Shown here in pieces: positions 2,924 through 40,087 of a stretch of DNA of 64,000 bases. The stretch is from a virus. The stretch spans positions 39,738 to 103,737 of IMG/VR virus record IMGVR_UViG_3300005264_000005; one strand, given 5' to 3'. How positions within the stretch are numbered: position 1 is the stretch's first letter; each line of letters opens with the position of its first letter. The notes beneath the pieces are model-generated. The model searched no databases. It had not been told where the DNA came from and worked only from the letters and a program-made list of their open reading frames with translations. Made by a program: the position numbers and the translations under genes.

Positions 2924-3350
2924 CAACACTATCTTTTCTCTTATTAGTAAAGTCAGGAAAGTCATCATATTCTGCAGGAACAGAGCCTCGCTCTATCATC
3001 TCAAGTAAATGAACGATAGAGGTTAAGTTCCAAATAGCTTGAACTAAATGGTCCTCATCTCTATACCCTTCCAAGAATTGATTCATATGACGCTTAGCTG
3101 AATTATAGAATCGAGAAAGAGGCATGCCTTTCTCCCAATTTCTATCGGCATACTTGGCTACGCCACCCTCATACAACACTGCAAGTCTCCGCTCTAATAT
3201 TGGAGAAATAAGATCAAATCTACCTCGCCCAATGTCAGGCTCGCGCATCATGCCAGTTTCAGTAGTAGCTCTGTCGCCACCATCTTTTAATATGTGCTTC
3301 ACTGGCGGTACAAGTACTCGTGCTGGATGTATTTTCATATTATTCTCCAC
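2913..3350 (-). CDS. dATP/dGTP diphosphohydrolase domain protein (DUF5664-like)
   Basis: GRFDLISP, GVAKYADRNWEKG, SAKRH, EDHL motifs. Confidence 0.8.
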   Translation of the reverse strand: MENNMKIHPARVLVPPVKHILKDGGDRATTETGMMREPDIGRGRFDLISPILERRLAVLYEGGVAKYADRNWEKGMPLSRFYNSAKRHMNQFLEGYRDEDHLVQAIWNLTSIVHLLEMIERGSVPAEYDDFPDFTNKRKDSVDEL

Positions 3351-3566
3351 CTTTAATCATATGTTTCACCATCTCGCTCATAAATTTCCCCGTCATCTAA
3401 AGGGCACCATTTAGGGAAGCCAAATTCCTCACAGTCATCATCTTTATCATAAATCATATATTTAGAGTAAATATGCTTATTGGTGATAGAACAAATATCC
3501 TCTACCGCTCCACCATCTCTACGACAAGGACAATTTCTACATGACTTAACTATCTTATAAAAAACT

Positions 3567-4214
3567 TTACTCATTATCTTTCCTATCTGCTTCACTAAAA
3601 AAGTCAAAGTTAGTTCCTTTTAAGCTTACATCAACACTACTGCGATACTCAGATACACTAGCTGATACAGAGGCAAACATAGTTTGAGTTCCAATAGAAT
3701 CACTATTATAGCTCATGGCCTTACCGCTCTTGATACCAAATTTAGCACCTGTAGCAATAGCATCTTGACCTGCGCCTAGATAAATAAAGTCCCACTTACA
3801 CTCGTCCTCTTTAAAGTCAATCATTTCCTTGATAGTTGCACCATCAAATCCAGTAGACTTATTCTCATGTCCATCGGTTTGAATGACAAAGATAACATTG
3901 TCAGGCTTATTATCATCATCTAAGCCATCAATATAATCTGAAGTATCATGGATTGTATTACCTATAGCATCGAATAATGCCGTCATGCCACGAGGCACAT
4001 AAGTTTTATTGTTAAGTTCAGGGATAGACATGATATCTTTTGTACGGTGTAAAGTTTCAATTTCATGATCAAACTGCACGAGAGTCATGGTACAGAAACC
4101 ATTAGCTTCCTTTTGATCGTTTAGAAATTGATTAAATCCACCAATAGTATCTTTCTTAACATTGCCCATTGATCCAGAGCGGTCGATTATAAATGCGATG
4201 TGAGTTTTTGACAT
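3567..4214 (-). CDS. vWA domain protein
   Basis: DRSGSM MIDAS, TALFDA, TDGHEN. Confidence 0.85.
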   Translation of the reverse strand: MSKTHIAFIIDRSGSMGNVKKDTIGGFNQFLNDQKEANGFCTMTLVQFDHEIETLHRTKDIMSIPELNNKTYVPRGMTALFDAIGNTIHDTSDYIDGLDDDNKPDNVIFVIQTDGHENKSTGFDGATIKEMIDFKEDECKWDFIYLGAGQDAIATGAKFGIKSGKAMSYNSDSIGTQTMFASVSASVSEYRSSVDVSLKGTNFDFFSEADRKDNE

Positions 4215-5153
4215 ATTATGTCTCCTATAAATTAAAATGTTTTATTAGCATAACGTAAGTAGCCTTAAGAAGCCATAGCCTCCAATGCCATCATCAATTC
4301 TTTGCTTAATTGCTAAAATTCTATTGTATAATACAGATCCCTCAACCATAAGTTCCTCGAATATAGGAATAAAGTCATCTGAACGAAGCTTAGATATAAG
4401 AATAGGGTCTCCTGAGCCATCGGTCTTGATTACATAGCTAGACCATATACCAGAATTAGGATGTGTATGTGCATAGTGAATAAATTCATCATATGAATAT
4501 ACTCTAGTCCCCATAGCCGTAGCTCCATGACAACCAGTTCCAAATTTAATAAAGGCTATATTTTCTCTAATCATATTGTGTTTCCTGTAAGTTATTGTCC
4601 ATTATGTTGCTTTCTTAGCCATGCTGTTGTTTTTTTGATCAAATAAAGAATAAGTTCTATTGCCTATAACTGAGTTAGTCATACGCTTAAACAAATCATT
4701 ATGAATATGATTAGAGAGGTAGGTTTCAAAGTGAGTTTTCTTTAAAGATTTAATTTTTACTGGAATAAAGTCTATATTAACGCCAATGAGATAGTCATCA
4801 TGTGTATCAGTTAGTCTTCCGCTATTTTGTAGGTCTAGATAAGTTTCTATAGTAAAAAGCCTACAGTCCCTAAAGAATCTACTCTTTTTAATTCTTGCTA
4901 TCATGAACATACTATGTGTCCTTAGTTTTAATAATGTATTGTTTTGGTGTGTTGAGTCGCACAAAGGGTATTTCAAAAAGGATGGCATGAGAGGAGTGTC
5001 CAAATGGACAAAAGGATAAAGCACTGAGCCCCTACAAAATGCAGAGGCCCAGAATAGCAGATCCGAAAAATACCACTAAGAGGTTTTCAAGCTCTAGTGT
5101 GTGATTATAATTCAGATAACGTTATTAACACATAGATACCAAAAGGAGGTAAT

Positions 5154-13173: not shown

Positions 13174-13258
13174 GTTATTCTCCTTATCCCTTTTCTCTAG
13201 GGAAGTTAAAATGACTCACACGGGAGTCTAGTTTAGCTAAACCTTTTCTAGGTTAGCA

Positions 13259-14233
13259 TTATTGGTAATGATCAGCATTGAACTCAAAATCTTCTCTGTT
13301 TATAAACTGATTATGGACTCTGTATAAATATCCTATATTAGTAAGTAGCCCAAATGATGCTAAAGCCCAATCTCCTAATTGAATAGACCAGCCTCTTTTA
13401 ATAAATTTTTCTACTCTAAGAAACTGATTAATCTTATCTGGTAAGATTTGAAATATAAGAACCTTATCGCGAATAGCATGTAGCGTACCTTTATGCCAAT
13501 ATATCTGACTTCCATCATATGCAATAGAGCTATGCTTAAAATCAAACTGACTTATTAAGTCTTCAGGACAAGCATAAATTTTTTTCATTATCTGGAACCT
13601 TAAACCAGTATCTTTTTGACAATACTCAATAAGATGTTCCTTCTCGGTACCAGTATAGTTATCGTTTTTCTTGAAGTATTGATTTACACTTTCAAAGTCA
13701 TGATCACTGCTAAAGAATAAATCAAAATCACTTTCAATTGTATCAACACCAGCAAACCAATTAACCATTTTGCCACCAGCTAATATAAAATTTAACCCTT
13801 GACCATAAAGCCCATCAATGACCTCCATGATAGCGGTAGTTGTATGGTTATTCATCTTAAATTTGCGGATAAAAACTTCACGCTCACAACTCAAGCAAAT
13901 ATTATCAAATCTTAATAACTTGCACAACATAGGCTTATAAAACTCTGTCATAAGTCCTTTGATGTCACTGGGCTTAATATTTACCAGCTTCTTGTGCTCT
14001 ACTTTAGTTGATGTAGAAAATAAATCTTTACCAGTGAAGTCAAGGTTTTTTAGGTTTTTAACTTCAGCAAAATCCGTAGATACTCTATTAGCCTTAAGCG
14101 TAGTGATCTGAGTATTAGACCAGTCATCAGCAGCTGACATAGCATAGCTTGAAATAGTAGTTATATTATTACCACATGGAACAGTTAAGATAGGCTCTAC
14201 TCCAAGAGCCGTACCCATAAAACTAGCTGACAT
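13259..14233 (-). CDS. nucleotidyltransferase-fold protein with N-terminal extension
   Basis: ILAGG...SDFDLFF (GG plus DxD), FDF motif. Confidence 0.65.
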   Translation of the reverse strand: MSASFMGTALGVEPILTVPCGNNITTISSYAMSAADDWSNTQITTLKANRVSTDFAEVKNLKNLDFTGKDLFSTSTKVEHKKLVNIKPSDIKGLMTEFYKPMLCKLLRFDNICLSCEREVFIRKFKMNNHTTTAIMEVIDGLYGQGLNFILAGGKMVNWFAGVDTIESDFDLFFSSDHDFESVNQYFKKNDNYTGTEKEHLIEYCQKDTGLRFQIMKKIYACPEDLISQFDFKHSSIAYDGSQIYWHKGTLHAIRDKVLIFQILPDKINQFLRVEKFIKRGWSIQLGDWALASFGLLTNIGYLYRVHNQFINREDFEFNADHYQ

Positions 14234-14580
14234 AATATCTCCAGAATAAATTGTAAAAAAAGTCAGACAGTAGCTTTCTCATAGATACTAACTACTGCCT
14301 AACACAAAACATGTATAAAAACCAAGAATATCATTCGCCATATTCTCAGCCCCCATACTTGCACGCACGCGGGCCAATTGACCCGGATCCTGACGGCGTA
14401 ATTCGGCTGGGTTTTACCCAGCTTTATTTGTCGCCTGCAGATCCATGGTCAGATCTCGTGTGTTTATCGATCGAGATTTTGGCCTGCTTAGTGCCCGGAT
14501 CTCCCCGTGCGGAGCTCGAGGAGATTAAGGACCATAATCTCAGACCAAAGGTCGGTTAAGGGTTATGGTCCTTTTCTATC
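14234..14580 (-). ncRNA. structured RNA 3' of the RT (candidate template), GC-rich and palindrome-dense
   Basis: hairpin 14527-14573, 56% GC over 14341-14520, ends in TTTATACATGTTTT, then a further hairpin and U tract. Confidence 0.55.
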
Positions 14581-14585
14581 ATAGA

Positions 14586-15362
14586 CTACCGATTCAGCAG
14601 TCTTTTAGCATCACAAGTCTTCTTGTAACGCATTAGTTTCAAATATTGCTCTGGATTGACACTATTTAAGTATGCCAAGTATCCCATCTCTTCACTTGAA
14701 ACATTTCCACTATAGATAGCAGCTCTCAATTTCTTGCGAGTCTCTCTGTTCATGGAAACTTTCTCATTGACCGTCATGCCGAGAACTTTTTGTGATGAAT
14801 TCTTATATGAATATTGAATCTTATCGTTCCTAACTCTAAATCCACTATATCTAAGTCTCGATCTAACTGTATCAATTAAAGCTTTAATATCAGGCTTATC
14901 ATAACCAGATATTGTAATATCATCAGCATACCTAGAATAATCTAGATTGCCTGTATCTAAAGATTGATTTAAATCTTCATCAAATTCTCTTAAAATAATG
15001 TTTGAAATAATAGGACTACAAGGACTACCTTGAACTAGCTTATTCTCATAAGTAGATACTTCACTCTCATATTCATCTAGAAAATACAAATCACTTTTCC
15101 TTATAGATGGAAAAAAATCAGCTATATCTATATTGAGAATCCAGTCTTTTTGAGTATGCATAACAGCAGCGTTACTTGCACTAGACCCCTTTCTGAATCC
15201 ATGACAAAAGCTTGATATCCACTCATCTTCCTCTAGCCTATTTTTAATTCTTCTTTGCTCTAGCTTCAACTCCTCACATGGAGCATGTATAATTCTTTTC
15301 TTGCCATTCTTTTTCTTACGATAATATATTTCATACAAAGACTTCTTATCGCTTAAAATCAT
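14586..15362 (-). CDS. retron-type reverse transcriptase
   Basis: KKNGKKRIIHAP, HGFRKG, NAAVMH (NAxxH-like), DIADFFPSI, QGSPCSP, YSRYADD, VLG (VTG-like); ATG at 15362 with GGAG SD. Confidence 0.92.
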   Translation of the reverse strand: MILSDKKSLYEIYYRKKKNGKKRIIHAPCEELKLEQRRIKNRLEEDEWISSFCHGFRKGSSASNAAVMHTQKDWILNIDIADFFPSIRKSDLYFLDEYESEVSTYENKLVQGSPCSPIISNIILREFDEDLNQSLDTGNLDYSRYADDITISGYDKPDIKALIDTVRSRLRYSGFRVRNDKIQYSYKNSSQKVLGMTVNEKVSMNRETRKKLRAAIYSGNVSSEEMGYLAYLNSVNPEQYLKLMRYKKTCDAKRLLNR

Positions 15363-15369
15363 TTTACTC

Positions 15370-15918
15370 CCTCCTATAGCAAGAGGCCGAAGCCTCCTAC
15401 AATAGCACTTACTCGGCCAGGTTTTAAACCTGGCAACGAAAGGCTGAACTCGCAGAGTCAGAGCTCTTGAGTTCAGTTTAATTAATTGCCGAAACAGCAA
15501 TTATGAATAACAAAAATTGTATAAAAAGAAATTTCTTTCTTAGAATACCAATTAAATTGACAGAGGAGATTGAAAACGAATAGAAATTTGTATCCTTTGG
15601 ATACTAAATTTTCTTTCGTAGCGTAAGTTTTGCTGTCACCTTTGGTGTCTGCAATTTTTAATCCCCGCCAGTCAATTGTAATATTCTGAACCGCGAGTGT
15701 GAAGCACGAGCTTCAACACGTACATAGACAACCGAAACGATTGTCAAAAAAATTGTATAAAGAACTTGCATAGCATTAACTAGTTAACATACAAGGATAT
15801 ACTTTCTTAAACTCAAGTAGTAGTTATGTCTACTTGAGTTTAAGAAATACTTCACTGAACTTTAGGTTTATTTCAAGTCAGAGTGAAGTCGTACTACATT
15901 CTTGCCGAAACAGCAAGA
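15370..15918 (-). ncRNA. array of three structured ncRNA units upstream of the RT
   Basis: repeated GTTTCGG hairpin at 15902-15916, 15727-15745, 15486-15500; repeated TTTATACAATTTTT at 15748-15761, 15512-15525; long variable hairpins between. Confidence 0.65.
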
Positions 15919-15920
15919 GC

Positions 15921-31194: not shown

Positions 31195-32928
31195 CTACCA
31201 CAATCCAGTATTAGCACGAATTTCATCAAGACTATAGCTTACAGCTTGAACCTTATCGCCATAAACAGGAACAAGTACCTCAGTCCACTCTTCTCCAAGT
31301 GCTCTGTGGGTAGCCAATTCATTGTCAGAATATGTTTTCATTATGCCAAACATATCTTGATACAAGCTTAATCTTCCACGCTTAGACTGCTTAGTCATAT
31401 CAGTTTCTGGCTGCTTATATACTTCAATACCAGTGCCTTCAACTTCAATGTAACAGCATTTCATAGCAAACTGTAATATATCACGATCTACTTTCTGAAG
31501 CAGTCCTCCGCCAGAGCCAAATACAACATTAGTGACACAGAAGCCAGCAGTCTTAATTGCTTCTAAGACTTCAATAAGCTTAGCTTCATCAATGCCATCT
31601 CCTTGAATAACACGAACACAATTAGGTAGAACCCAATAGCCTTTTTCATTCTCAATCCCACCAAAATATTTCTTAAGCTCATTTAGGCAGAACAATACAG
31701 ACTCAACTGGATCACCACTGTCAGGACGAGTAACCCATCGACCACCCCAATCTAAAATACGCTGCTTCATTTTAGTGCCAAGATATTCAATATGCTTTTT
31801 CATACTATAAGAATCATTAACACAAGCAATAATCTTAGCATCCCAATATTGGGTCAAAGTACGTTCCATTACATCAAACTCACCATTGCATCCACGAGCA
31901 GTCATAACGCTGTGCTCTGTAGCTACAATACTATATCCAGCACACCCTTCGCTAATACCATATACTTCTTCTGCAAAAATAGCAGCCTCAACATTATCAG
32001 TACCAAGGAAGTTGAATAAATGACCAAGACCACCAAGTTCAGCTGAAGTATCAGAACTTACGCCTCTAGCGCCAAAGTCGTGCAATGCAAACGGAATCCA
32101 AGCTACAAAATCTTCTTCAGTAGCAGTCTCTTTGCTTGCCGCCATTAAATGCTTTTTCTGCATGTAGGAATTAGTTGCAACGGTTGCAGGATACCATATC
32201 GCTCGTAAAATCACGGTCTCAAGAAATGAAACAATGCTTGCACACTTAGGATCATCACATTCAACAGTGACAATAACATTACCTTCAGGAATACATTGTA
32301 TTCGACCAGAGTCGTTAATTCTGGCCCGCAGCATTACCTGCAGCTTATGCTTTCACATAAGATTAGACTATATCAAGCTCTTCAACATTATTTGTTAAGA
32401 GCCTCTCCATTTCCACTCACTTGAATGTACTCCCTCGCGGGATAGTCGTTGAACGTTCTATTTAAAAGTTATCACTCCGTGGAGTCTCTAAATAGCTTCG
32501 CTGCTGATCACCATATCTTTACAGACTTAGGCTTCCCAGCAATTAAAAGAGTTTCGACATGACATTTCTGTCATGAAGGGCTATTAATTAACCATTCCTT
32601 CAGGCACAGCTTTAATGGTGATAGGAATATATCCACTATATTCCTTAATGATATACTCAAAGATACCTCGCATCTTCCTATCAAACAAATCAAAACCATA
32701 GTGTCTCTTAAAAAACCGTGATGCGTATTCTACATCAGCTTGAGTTATTGGCTTCAACAAGTAATCAGAAATAAATGCTTTAATGCCAGCTACCTGAACA
32801 AACTTCCACTTACCACCAGCTCGTGCTTCAACATAATCAAACATAAGATTCATATTATCATCATAAATAAGTGCATGAGATGGCTTATAGCTATCGGTTT
32901 TTGTGCATAAATTTTTTCTGTTATACAT
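31195..32928 (-). CDS. nadV: nicotinamide phosphoribosyltransferase, spliced (exon1 32928-32591, exon2 32293-31195; 478 aa)
   Basis: TDSYKPSH, HDFGARG, ATEHS, RPDSGDP, IQGDG, FGSGGGLLQ; splicing restores AVPEGMVIPEGN. Confidence 0.9.
32294..32590 (-). mobile_element. group I intron without ORF (297 nt) in nadV
   Basis: P1 GGT/GCC, P10 AATA/TATT, same core blocks as the phoH intron, terminal G. Confidence 0.88.
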
Positions 32929-39449: not shown

Positions 39450-39915
39450 AATAAAACCTTTCTAAAAGTGTATTTAAATTAAGTTAACCTCTTGTTGGCG
39501 CATCAAACAAGTTGGAATATTTATGTAACCAAGTTTGAATAGTAAGCCTACTGACTCCAGTATCTTCAATAGCTCTAATCATATAGCTAAATAGTGTACC
39601 ATTTTTCTGGCCTCGACCAGGCTTGCTAACGATAGCATTTATTTCGTCTAACTCTTCTTGAGTAGTACCATTTATGCCTACTATTCTTTGAGAAAAAGTA
39701 AACGCTGATTTGTTTTTAGCTGCACTACATAATTCCATAGCTAAAACCCTGCGTGCCTCATATCCATATTGAGCGCCAAAAGTTGGCTTGTTTGGGATTT
39801 CATTTATTTGCTTAGTATGAACAGCAGAACAATCTTCAAGGGCTTGCCTAAATGCAATACTCGGTTGCATAATGCCTCCAATAAAATGTTTAAGAATTAA
39901 TTACTACAAAAATAA

Positions 39916-39994: not shown

Positions 39995-40014
39995 TTACTA
40001 AAAAACTTTAAATG

Positions 40015-40087
40015 CCTAAGAGTTGGGATTGCACCCACGACCTCTGCTTAGAATAGCAGTGTTCTCTCATTGCTGAACTATCTTAGG
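40015..40087 (-). pseudogene. degenerate tRNA (anticodon unclear, Arg-TCT-like)
   Basis: acceptor, D and T-like arms present; 6-nt anticodon loop, no CCA. Confidence 0.4.

Follow-up and report, generated by a model that had tools for sequence, protein, structure and literature searches.

Among described systems, the bacterial retrons, such as Retron-Eco1 (Ec86), come closest to the locus analyzed here: they combine a retron-clade reverse transcriptase (RT) with an adjacent structured non-coding RNA (ncRNA) on the same strand, and their RTs carry the signature NAXXH in region X and the triplet VTG in region Y (PMC7736814). For Retron-Eco1, experiments have defined a UUU terminal loop as the motif that the RT recognizes (PMC11754653). 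The msDNA of Retron-Sen2 (St85) senses phage Dam methylation (bioRxiv 10.64898/2026.10.13.758329; 10.1101/2020.06.22.160242), and the ncRNA next to the defence RT DRT2 is turned into double-stranded DNA in the cell, which provides a precedent for a prokaryotic RT that makes double-stranded DNA from an adjacent ncRNA (PMC12039810).

The locus considered here lies in the 103.7-kb record of an uncultured virus from a marine-sediment metagenome (36% GC, estimated completeness 65%). The window, by which we mean the whole stretch of 64,000 nucleotides that was analyzed, represents positions 39,738 to 103,737 of that record. The phage carries 13 tRNA genes and a group I intron, almost all of its genes are on the minus strand, and DNA methyltransferases of the Pfam families PF01555, PF00145, and PF02086 were not detected in the 65%-complete record. 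One tRNA-like gene on the minus strand (40014-40087; Rfam tRNA, 36.5 bits) has an irregular anticodon loop according to ARAGORN (anticodon 'tc'). The subject of this study is a cluster of nine different 6-bp palindromes in a 352-bp gap between two minus-strand genes that code for a retron-type RT and a nucleotidyltransferase-like protein (Table 1).

Table 1. Features of the locus and its surroundings; positions are those of the window unless another locus is named
Feature	Position	Strand	Basis or remarks
Terminal nucleotidyltransferase-like gene, 324 aa	13259-14233	-	conserved RT neighbour
Terminator-like hairpin followed by seven U	14255-14303	-	RNA fold
Closing hairpin H4, 19-bp G-U-rich stem, 3' arm = conserved motif UUUUUAUACAUGUUUU	14310-14361	-	fold z = -5.8
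Branched domain H3, 7 of the 9 palindromes	14362-14497	-	RNA fold
Cluster of nine different 6-bp palindromes	14375-14520	n/a	site positions and shuffle statistics
Hairpin H2, overlapping GAGCTC/CTCGAG at the tip	14499-14525	-	RNA fold
Hairpin H1, 11-bp outer stem (14563-14573 with 14527-14537), inner GACC-UUU-GGUC (14543-14553)	14527-14573	-	RNA fold
Retron-type reverse transcriptase, 258 aa, P0001	14586-15362	-	Pfam RVT_1, 5e-29
Upstream array, three non-coding units	15284-15920	-	each with a G-UUU-CG-topped hairpin at its start and the H4 closing motif at its end
G-UUU-CG hairpins of the upstream units	15902-15916, 15727-15745, 15486-15500
CUCUGAC...GUUCAG sites, window	15444-15463, 15855-15883	-
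CUCUGAC...GUUCAG site, L002	2213-2242
CUCUGAC...GUUCAG sites, L082	1614-1638, 1915-1934, 2779-2807
Group I intron	32344-32600	-	Rfam, 77.6 bits, E 5.5e-18

The locus shares with Retron-Eco1 and other retrons an RT of the retron clade and an adjacent structured ncRNA on the same strand, UUU-loop hairpins like the Eco1 recognition loop (PMC11754653), and a variable body at the place of the msd template. It differs from them in that it is carried by a large phage, has a very small RT, and comprises several RNA units per RT, with the palindrome-bearing unit downstream of the RT. Furthermore, the unit has a conserved closing hairpin where no a1/a2 pair or priming G was identified, its branched body is full of different restriction-type palindromes instead of forming one long hairpin, no known retron effector was found, and the msDNA is only predicted. 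In likeness to Retron-Sen2, the functional element is proposed to be a recognition site that RT-made DNA offers to a DNA-modifying enzyme. However, Retron-Sen2 has one site and the toxin RcaT, whereas this toxin is lacking in the phage studied here, whose element has nine different sites, with as many as 38 in relatives. DRT2 produces rolling-circle concatemers that encode a toxic protein and uses an RT of another clade, whereas a second strand is only proposed for the locus described here.

The assignment of the RT to the retron clade is based on 76 matching PADLOC retron RT models, with RT_III-A as the best match (2.8e-58), and group II intron and DRT models scored far below the retron models (Drt2: 2e-10, 40 bits versus a 390-bit cut-off). 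The best NCBIfam match, retron_St85_RT, reached 182 bits, which is under the family cut-off of 235 bits, and no single retron type was assigned. At the NAXXH position, P0001 contains NAAVMH, which is one residue longer, and at the VTG position it contains VLG within KVLGMTVN. The most conserved residues of both motifs, H69 and G195, are invariant in the alignment of the 19-member family. The closest relatives of the RT are P0002 and P0003 with 64% and 57% identity, respectively, and a search of viral contigs with the single protein as query gave no match. PADLOC did not find any known retron effector family among the neighbours. A diversity-generating retroelement was considered and rejected, as neither the window nor the whole record contains the segment a second time.

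The element behind the RT is non-coding, and its minus strand is predicted to fold from the RT stop codon to the terminator with -135.5 kcal/mol (z = -8.4 versus shuffles). As 17 of the 122 predicted pairs are G-U pairs, the minus strand is probably the RNA. Judged by sequence and modelled fold, an msr-msd-type RNA with a putative RT recognition hairpin thus appears to adjoin the RT. Its 5'-to-3' order would be a UUU-loop hairpin (H1) as RT handle, a palindrome body consisting of H2 and H3, the closing hairpin H4, and the terminator. H1 is a candidate handle in the RNA, and in the complementary DNA strand it would be a 3'-terminal snap-back hairpin. A terminal a1/a2 inverted repeat or a priming G could not be fixed around the element, and a duplex search of the regions flanking the RT was uninformative; in the related locus L002, an a1/a2-like 11-bp stem encloses the array. 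The conserved closing hairpin with its U-run and G could be a joined a2/a1, and the order of the unit would then be the canonical retron order (a1, G, msr, msd, a2) circularly permuted, with a2 and a1 joined as H4 and the template presumably starting beside H4. The closing element has two tiers, a constant GUAU...AUAC base followed by AAUUUUU, and the same fold was found in eight copies in the window, L002, and L082. This closing motif is the sole part of the elements of the three loci that can be aligned, which precludes a covariation test.

The original prediction had placed the segment behind the RT, between a hairpin and the array closing motif, where a template would be, and this location is correct: the segment is in non-coding DNA directly behind a retron-type RT, between the UUU-loop hairpin H1 and the conserved closing motif. 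It had also stated that the segment does not form one long hairpin, so that second-strand synthesis or intermolecular pairing would be required. The predicted fold is indeed multi-branched, and the need for a second strand is sound, as the fold itself does not pair the sites into duplexes. As nearly every site occurs only once and a long intramolecular hairpin would need each of them twice, duplex presentation could only be achieved via a complementary strand. In the predicted folds of five elements, 1 of 10, 0 of 11, 1 of 43, 0 of 25, and 1 of 15 palindromes were fully unpaired, and the sites were located neither in loops nor in perfect stems. This position argues against the palindromes being a by-product of RNA folding, as do the consideration that a contiguous palindrome cannot be a hairpin and the fact that control RNAs of the phage, addressed below, have no palindrome excess.

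Several further features of the locus were recorded. With the three units of the upstream array, the locus has a total of four UUU-loop hairpins. Rfam contains no family for the element; its match to mir-2797 at 15803-15848 is spurious, and the same minus-strand positions in the first upstream unit form a perfect 17-bp hairpin that resembles a classic msd stem. The CUCUGAC...GUUCAG hairpin motif is found specifically in these RT loci, with 0.01 occurrences expected per window, and in the unit before the RT it offers an alternative pairing of ACUGAACUC with GAGUUCAG. The final bases of the RT gene (TAGTCTATGATAGAAAAG, 14568-14592, minus strand) recur imperfectly inside the terminator (TAGTATCTATGAGAAAG, 14266-14296, minus strand). 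As the RT and nucleotidyltransferase genes abut in L002, the element appears to be inserted between them in the phage studied here.

The nine palindromes were found at the predicted positions (CAATTG at 14375, GGATCC at 14385, CTGCAG at 14435, CCATGG at 14443, AGATCT at 14451, ATCGAT at 14466, CGATCG at 14468, GAGCTC at 14512, and CTCGAG at 14515), together with five GATC, two CCGG, and two GGCC sites and the direct repeat CCCGGATC at 14382 and 14494. None of the nine is used twice, and some of them overlap (ATCGATCG, GAGCTCGAG). The GC content, given as 56% in the prediction, was 55.6% in our measurement, compared to 36% genome-wide. The prediction assumed a chance level of two to three palindromes, and dinucleotide shuffles gave 3.0-3.1. 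At least nine palindromes occurred in 9-14 of 3000-5000 of these shuffles, corresponding to P ~0.003; shuffles that kept the mononucleotide content also gave about 3 palindromes, with nine or more in roughly 0.3%. Nine palindromes per 180 bp are reached at six places of the window. When the whole 103.7-kb record was scanned with composition correction, the proposed enrichment held in rank but hardly in margin, as the segment came first with P 2.9e-3, narrowly ahead of two other scan positions with 3.1e-3 and 3.3e-3. For GC-rich palindromes, the segment is the record maximum (6 versus 4 in the runner-up), a lead that is clear for this class only. The full 265-nt element contains 9 palindromes versus 4.4 expected (P ~0.03). 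No excess was found in the control structured RNAs of the phage, which were the group I intron, the tRNA cluster, and the upstream unit array (13 palindromes versus 11.1 expected). By itself, the palindrome excess in this window is modest, and the statistics are compatible with chance; the case is weak in isolation because other stretches of the same phage score almost as high. The premise that phages usually avoid such sites fails for this phage, in which the genomic observed/expected ratios of 0.5-1.2 are close to the expected frequency.

The comparison with related phage loci gives the palindromes more weight. We compared L002, L007, L051, L082, and G004, whose RTs are 26-47% identical to P0001; the closest RT relatives, P0002 and P0003, were not part of this set. 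The same feature, often stronger, was present in four of the five. In L002 (RT 47% identical), the GC-rich element immediately preceding the RT contains 11 different palindromes versus 3 expected; L007 (36%) has 41 palindromes in 521 bp versus 10 expected, 38 of them different (P ~2e-13), and also 8-bp and interrupted sites; L051 (26%) has 22 palindromes versus 7.5 expected; and in the complete 206-kb genome G004 (46%), 12 palindromes versus 3.7 expected form an array 14 kb from the RT. This array (approximately 77,900-78,130; L293 17900-18130) is located in a gap without coding sequence, separated from the RT-nucleotidyltransferase pair by 14 kb, and contains GGATCC three times, CTGCAG twice, and CTCGAG, GCTAGC, AGCGCT, and GACGTC among others. 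The exception is L082 (44%), the closest relative with the same layout, whose homologous element at the same place has no 6-bp excess (3 palindromes versus 2.3 expected). Its odd palindromes, however, number 7 versus 2.4 expected, including CGGACCG and three extended CCWGG sites, and odd, interrupted palindromes are enriched overall (53 versus 28.6 expected). In four of five whole records, including that of the present phage, the densest palindrome stretch is only 12-1971 bp away from a retron-type RT (12 bp in this phage). The joint chance of this proximity, estimated from record lengths and by position alone, is roughly 3e-7. Five elements of the class jointly cover 49 of the 64 possible 6-bp palindromes with hardly any repetition, and GATC is among the most enriched 4-mers of the elements. 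The site sets show no relation to the sites that the phage genomes carry or avoid.

Two sequence patterns that could have characterized the class were rejected. The pattern GGATCCGG...CCGCGKG, common to four elements, gave only chance matches in GC-rich phages, and TATACAATTTTT...GTTTCGG led to six loci without RT, nucleotidyltransferase, or palindrome arrays, which served as negative controls only. In the GC-rich phage locus L232, which has no RT link, 14 palindromes, 12 of them different, are found within 200 bp (4150-4450) in what is probably coding sequence; dense palindromes are thus possible without an RT. A published description of such palindrome arrays at phage RT loci was not found in the literature. 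Palindrome arrays at phage retron-type RT loci look like a robust and apparently undescribed class, of which the element in the window is a weak and sparse member.

As the segment resembles a laboratory polylinker, contamination by a cloning vector or an assembly chimera had to be considered. Neither is credible. There was no match among 72,556 plasmid or 50,697 phage records, either with megablast or with sensitive blastn, and four further phages, found in other metagenomes, have different arrays. Positions 13200-15550 are covered with zero differences by an independent 29.7-kb contig of run X1, and a second sample, run X2, contains the element letter for letter. Both origins are thereby excluded as far as the assembled contigs of the two runs show; X1 is probably the source sample and X2 a second sample of the same study. 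At 15550/15551, inside the upstream array, the X1 contig has 124 additional letters, and it has a T>C exchange at 15659; the upstream array may thus have one unit more than the record shows, or the population may vary.

Run X2 contained four short pieces of a 3-kb stretch, all identical to the window. A contig of 85 nt consists of the plus strand from 14508 to 14573, followed by the minus strand from 14526 to 14508; it is a fold-back whose turn falls precisely where the H1 inverted repeat ends. A second contig of 179 nt (14359-14537) begins at the H4 border and reaches the near arm of H1. The depth of these two contigs was about 26, compared to 17-19 for the two other pieces, contig depth being a poor measure. 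As the 11-bp repeat of H1 is shorter than the assembler word, assumed to be 31 bases, the fold-back junction should derive from reads. Plus-strand DNA of 14359-14573 is predicted to end in the H1 hairpin with its last base paired. In this model, a plus strand that ends at 14573 would be the expected product of an RT copying the minus-strand RNA, and its 3' end would be extendable. The fold-back contig resembles a self-primed double-stranded cDNA, which is a weak hint and a lead rather than evidence of reverse transcription. It could also be an artefact of library preparation or amplification at the inverted repeat, or it could stem from a variant strain that carries an inverted duplication. 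cDNA does not account for the other two X2 pieces, one of which is the conserved core of the nucleotidyltransferase gene.

The nucleotidyltransferase gene follows the RT gene in four phages (the present one, G001/L002, L082, and G004/L003). In the alignment of the 324-aa protein, the polymerase-beta-type nucleotidyltransferase residues GG, DxD, and D are invariant. The core of the protein is predicted well (residues 90-300) and comes nearest in fold to class II CCA-adding enzymes, bacterial poly(A) polymerase, and the TENT5 tailing enzymes, and its N-terminus of 85 residues is disordered. An exhaustive search of the protein library detected 385 relatives, whereas a word-indexed search returned the protein itself alone. 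Just upstream are polynucleotide-kinase-like and phosphatase-like genes, which resemble an RNA-repair neighbourhood. The nucleotidyltransferase may tail the RNA or the DNA copy, may act as an effector, or may simply belong to the RNA-repair genes.

We take the segment to be a genuine functional element, namely the body of a retron-type RNA unit. Our preferred reading, held tentatively and at somewhat less than even confidence, is that the segment is the variable msd-like body of the last of four ncRNA units in a phage retron-type locus, and that its palindromes were selected to be copied by the RT into a bait. The selected feature of the class would be arrays of different sites of the kind recognized by type II restriction-modification systems. 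The RT would copy the body into plus-sense DNA of approximately 14359-14573, the 3' end of this DNA would fold back on H1 and prime the second strand, and the sites would thereby become double-stranded, so that many copies could bait host restriction enzymes or methyltransferases. Dimeric proteins, among them type II restriction enzymes and their methyltransferases, typically target odd, interrupted palindromes. That such palindromes are enriched, even though they cannot self-pair at their centre, favours recognition by a protein over self-pairing. The phage and plasmid proteins Ocr and ArdA counter restriction by type I systems through DNA mimicry. The proposed bait would resemble them by function only, in that restriction-modification enzymes are occupied with a non-genomic ligand, and would differ in that the ligand is real DNA with type II-type sites.

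Several points count against this reading. A cleavable bait titrates a turnover enzyme poorly, and as restriction hits the entering DNA before phage genes are expressed, a post-infection decoy could shield replicating DNA only. Nor do the site sets correspond to the sites that phage genomes carry or avoid. Furthermore, the excess is modest in the present phage, absent for 6-bp sites in L082, and found 14 kb away from the RT in G004. The function as decoy is possible, with a monitoring role nearly as likely or equally fitting. The bolder generalization, namely that large phages employ retron-type RTs to make a hairpin-ended double-stranded "polylinker" DNA with a self-primed second strand, which serves as a broad type II bait and evolves by the swapping of sites, is unlikely.

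In a monitoring role, the DNA copy would be a sensor: enzymes of rival phages or of the host that methylate or cut its sites would alter the RT-DNA complex and release an effector. This effector could possibly be the neighbouring nucleotidyltransferase, acting on the 3' ends of tRNA or other RNA, with exclusion of the rival or a switch of the phage programme as possible outcomes. Taken as a specific mechanism, we consider this rather improbable, although several points speak for it. A single Dam methylation site on the msDNA suffices to activate Retron-Sen2 (bioRxiv 10.64898/2026.10.13.758329; 10.1101/2020.06.22.160242), the GATC enrichment fits such a principle, the neighbouring nucleotidyltransferase has intact catalytic residues and is conserved next to the RT in the four phages, and site sets unrelated to the phage's own sites suit a sensor of foreign enzymes as well as a decoy. 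Yet no known retron effector family was found, the nucleotidyltransferase resembles housekeeping CCA-adding or poly(A) enzymes amid a kinase and a phosphatase so that its link to the RT may be nil, and the record looks like a large phage with its own tRNAs and not like a prophage with defence cargo. It is also conceivable, although rather improbable, that the nine sites arose by chance in a GC-rich structured retron-type unit, even though the dense arrays of the relatives may be real. The P value of only ~0.003, the two scan positions that score nearly the same, the count of 9 versus 4.4 over the whole element, and the homologous L082 element without excess all suit this view. It leaves unexplained why the top stretch of a 103.7-kb record should be 12 bp from an RT, and likewise near an RT in three related records, why the nine sites are all different and in several cases overlap so that space is saved, why the record maximum for GC-rich palindromes falls at this place, and why the other structured RNAs of the phage lack such an excess.

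A function of the palindromes in the double-stranded genome itself, be it as binding sites of dimeric proteins, as a break or recombination hot spot that moves the RNA units, or in methylation-sensitive control, appears to be quite improbable. Even- and odd-length palindromes would suit dimeric DNA-binding proteins generally, the element has apparently changed position (it precedes the RT in L002, follows it in the window and L082, and is 14 kb off in G004), and in the window it is flanked by the imperfect direct repeat of the RT gene end. However, sites for one or a few regulators would not be nearly all different, as is the case with 38 of 41 in L007, and the association with RT genes and retron-like RNA handles would have no explanation. 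Still more improbable is that the palindromes serve self-pairing, with RNA or single-stranded DNA copies pairing between molecules via kissing loops and thus forming dimers or assemblies. Six-base loop palindromes do drive RNA dimerisation in other systems, and large self-assembling RNAs occur in phages near tRNA genes. The palindromes of the five predicted folds are, however, almost never fully unpaired, the likewise enriched odd palindromes are not capable of self-pairing at the centre, some of the sites are weak, AT-only ones, and a catalogue-like set without repetition would serve no purpose.

With regard to the class as a whole, the window adds an independent member, a defined unit architecture with UUU handle, body, and closing hairpin, and a weak first trace of fold-back DNA. 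If the class is real, retron-type RTs would also have a function for the phage in the arms race, and the small orphan RTs in large phages with ordinary site content would be explained. The arrays would then represent the first natural DNA that is custom-made as a ligand with multiple specificities for restriction-modification enzymes, and they would offer a compact natural system to produce defined double-stranded DNA in cells.
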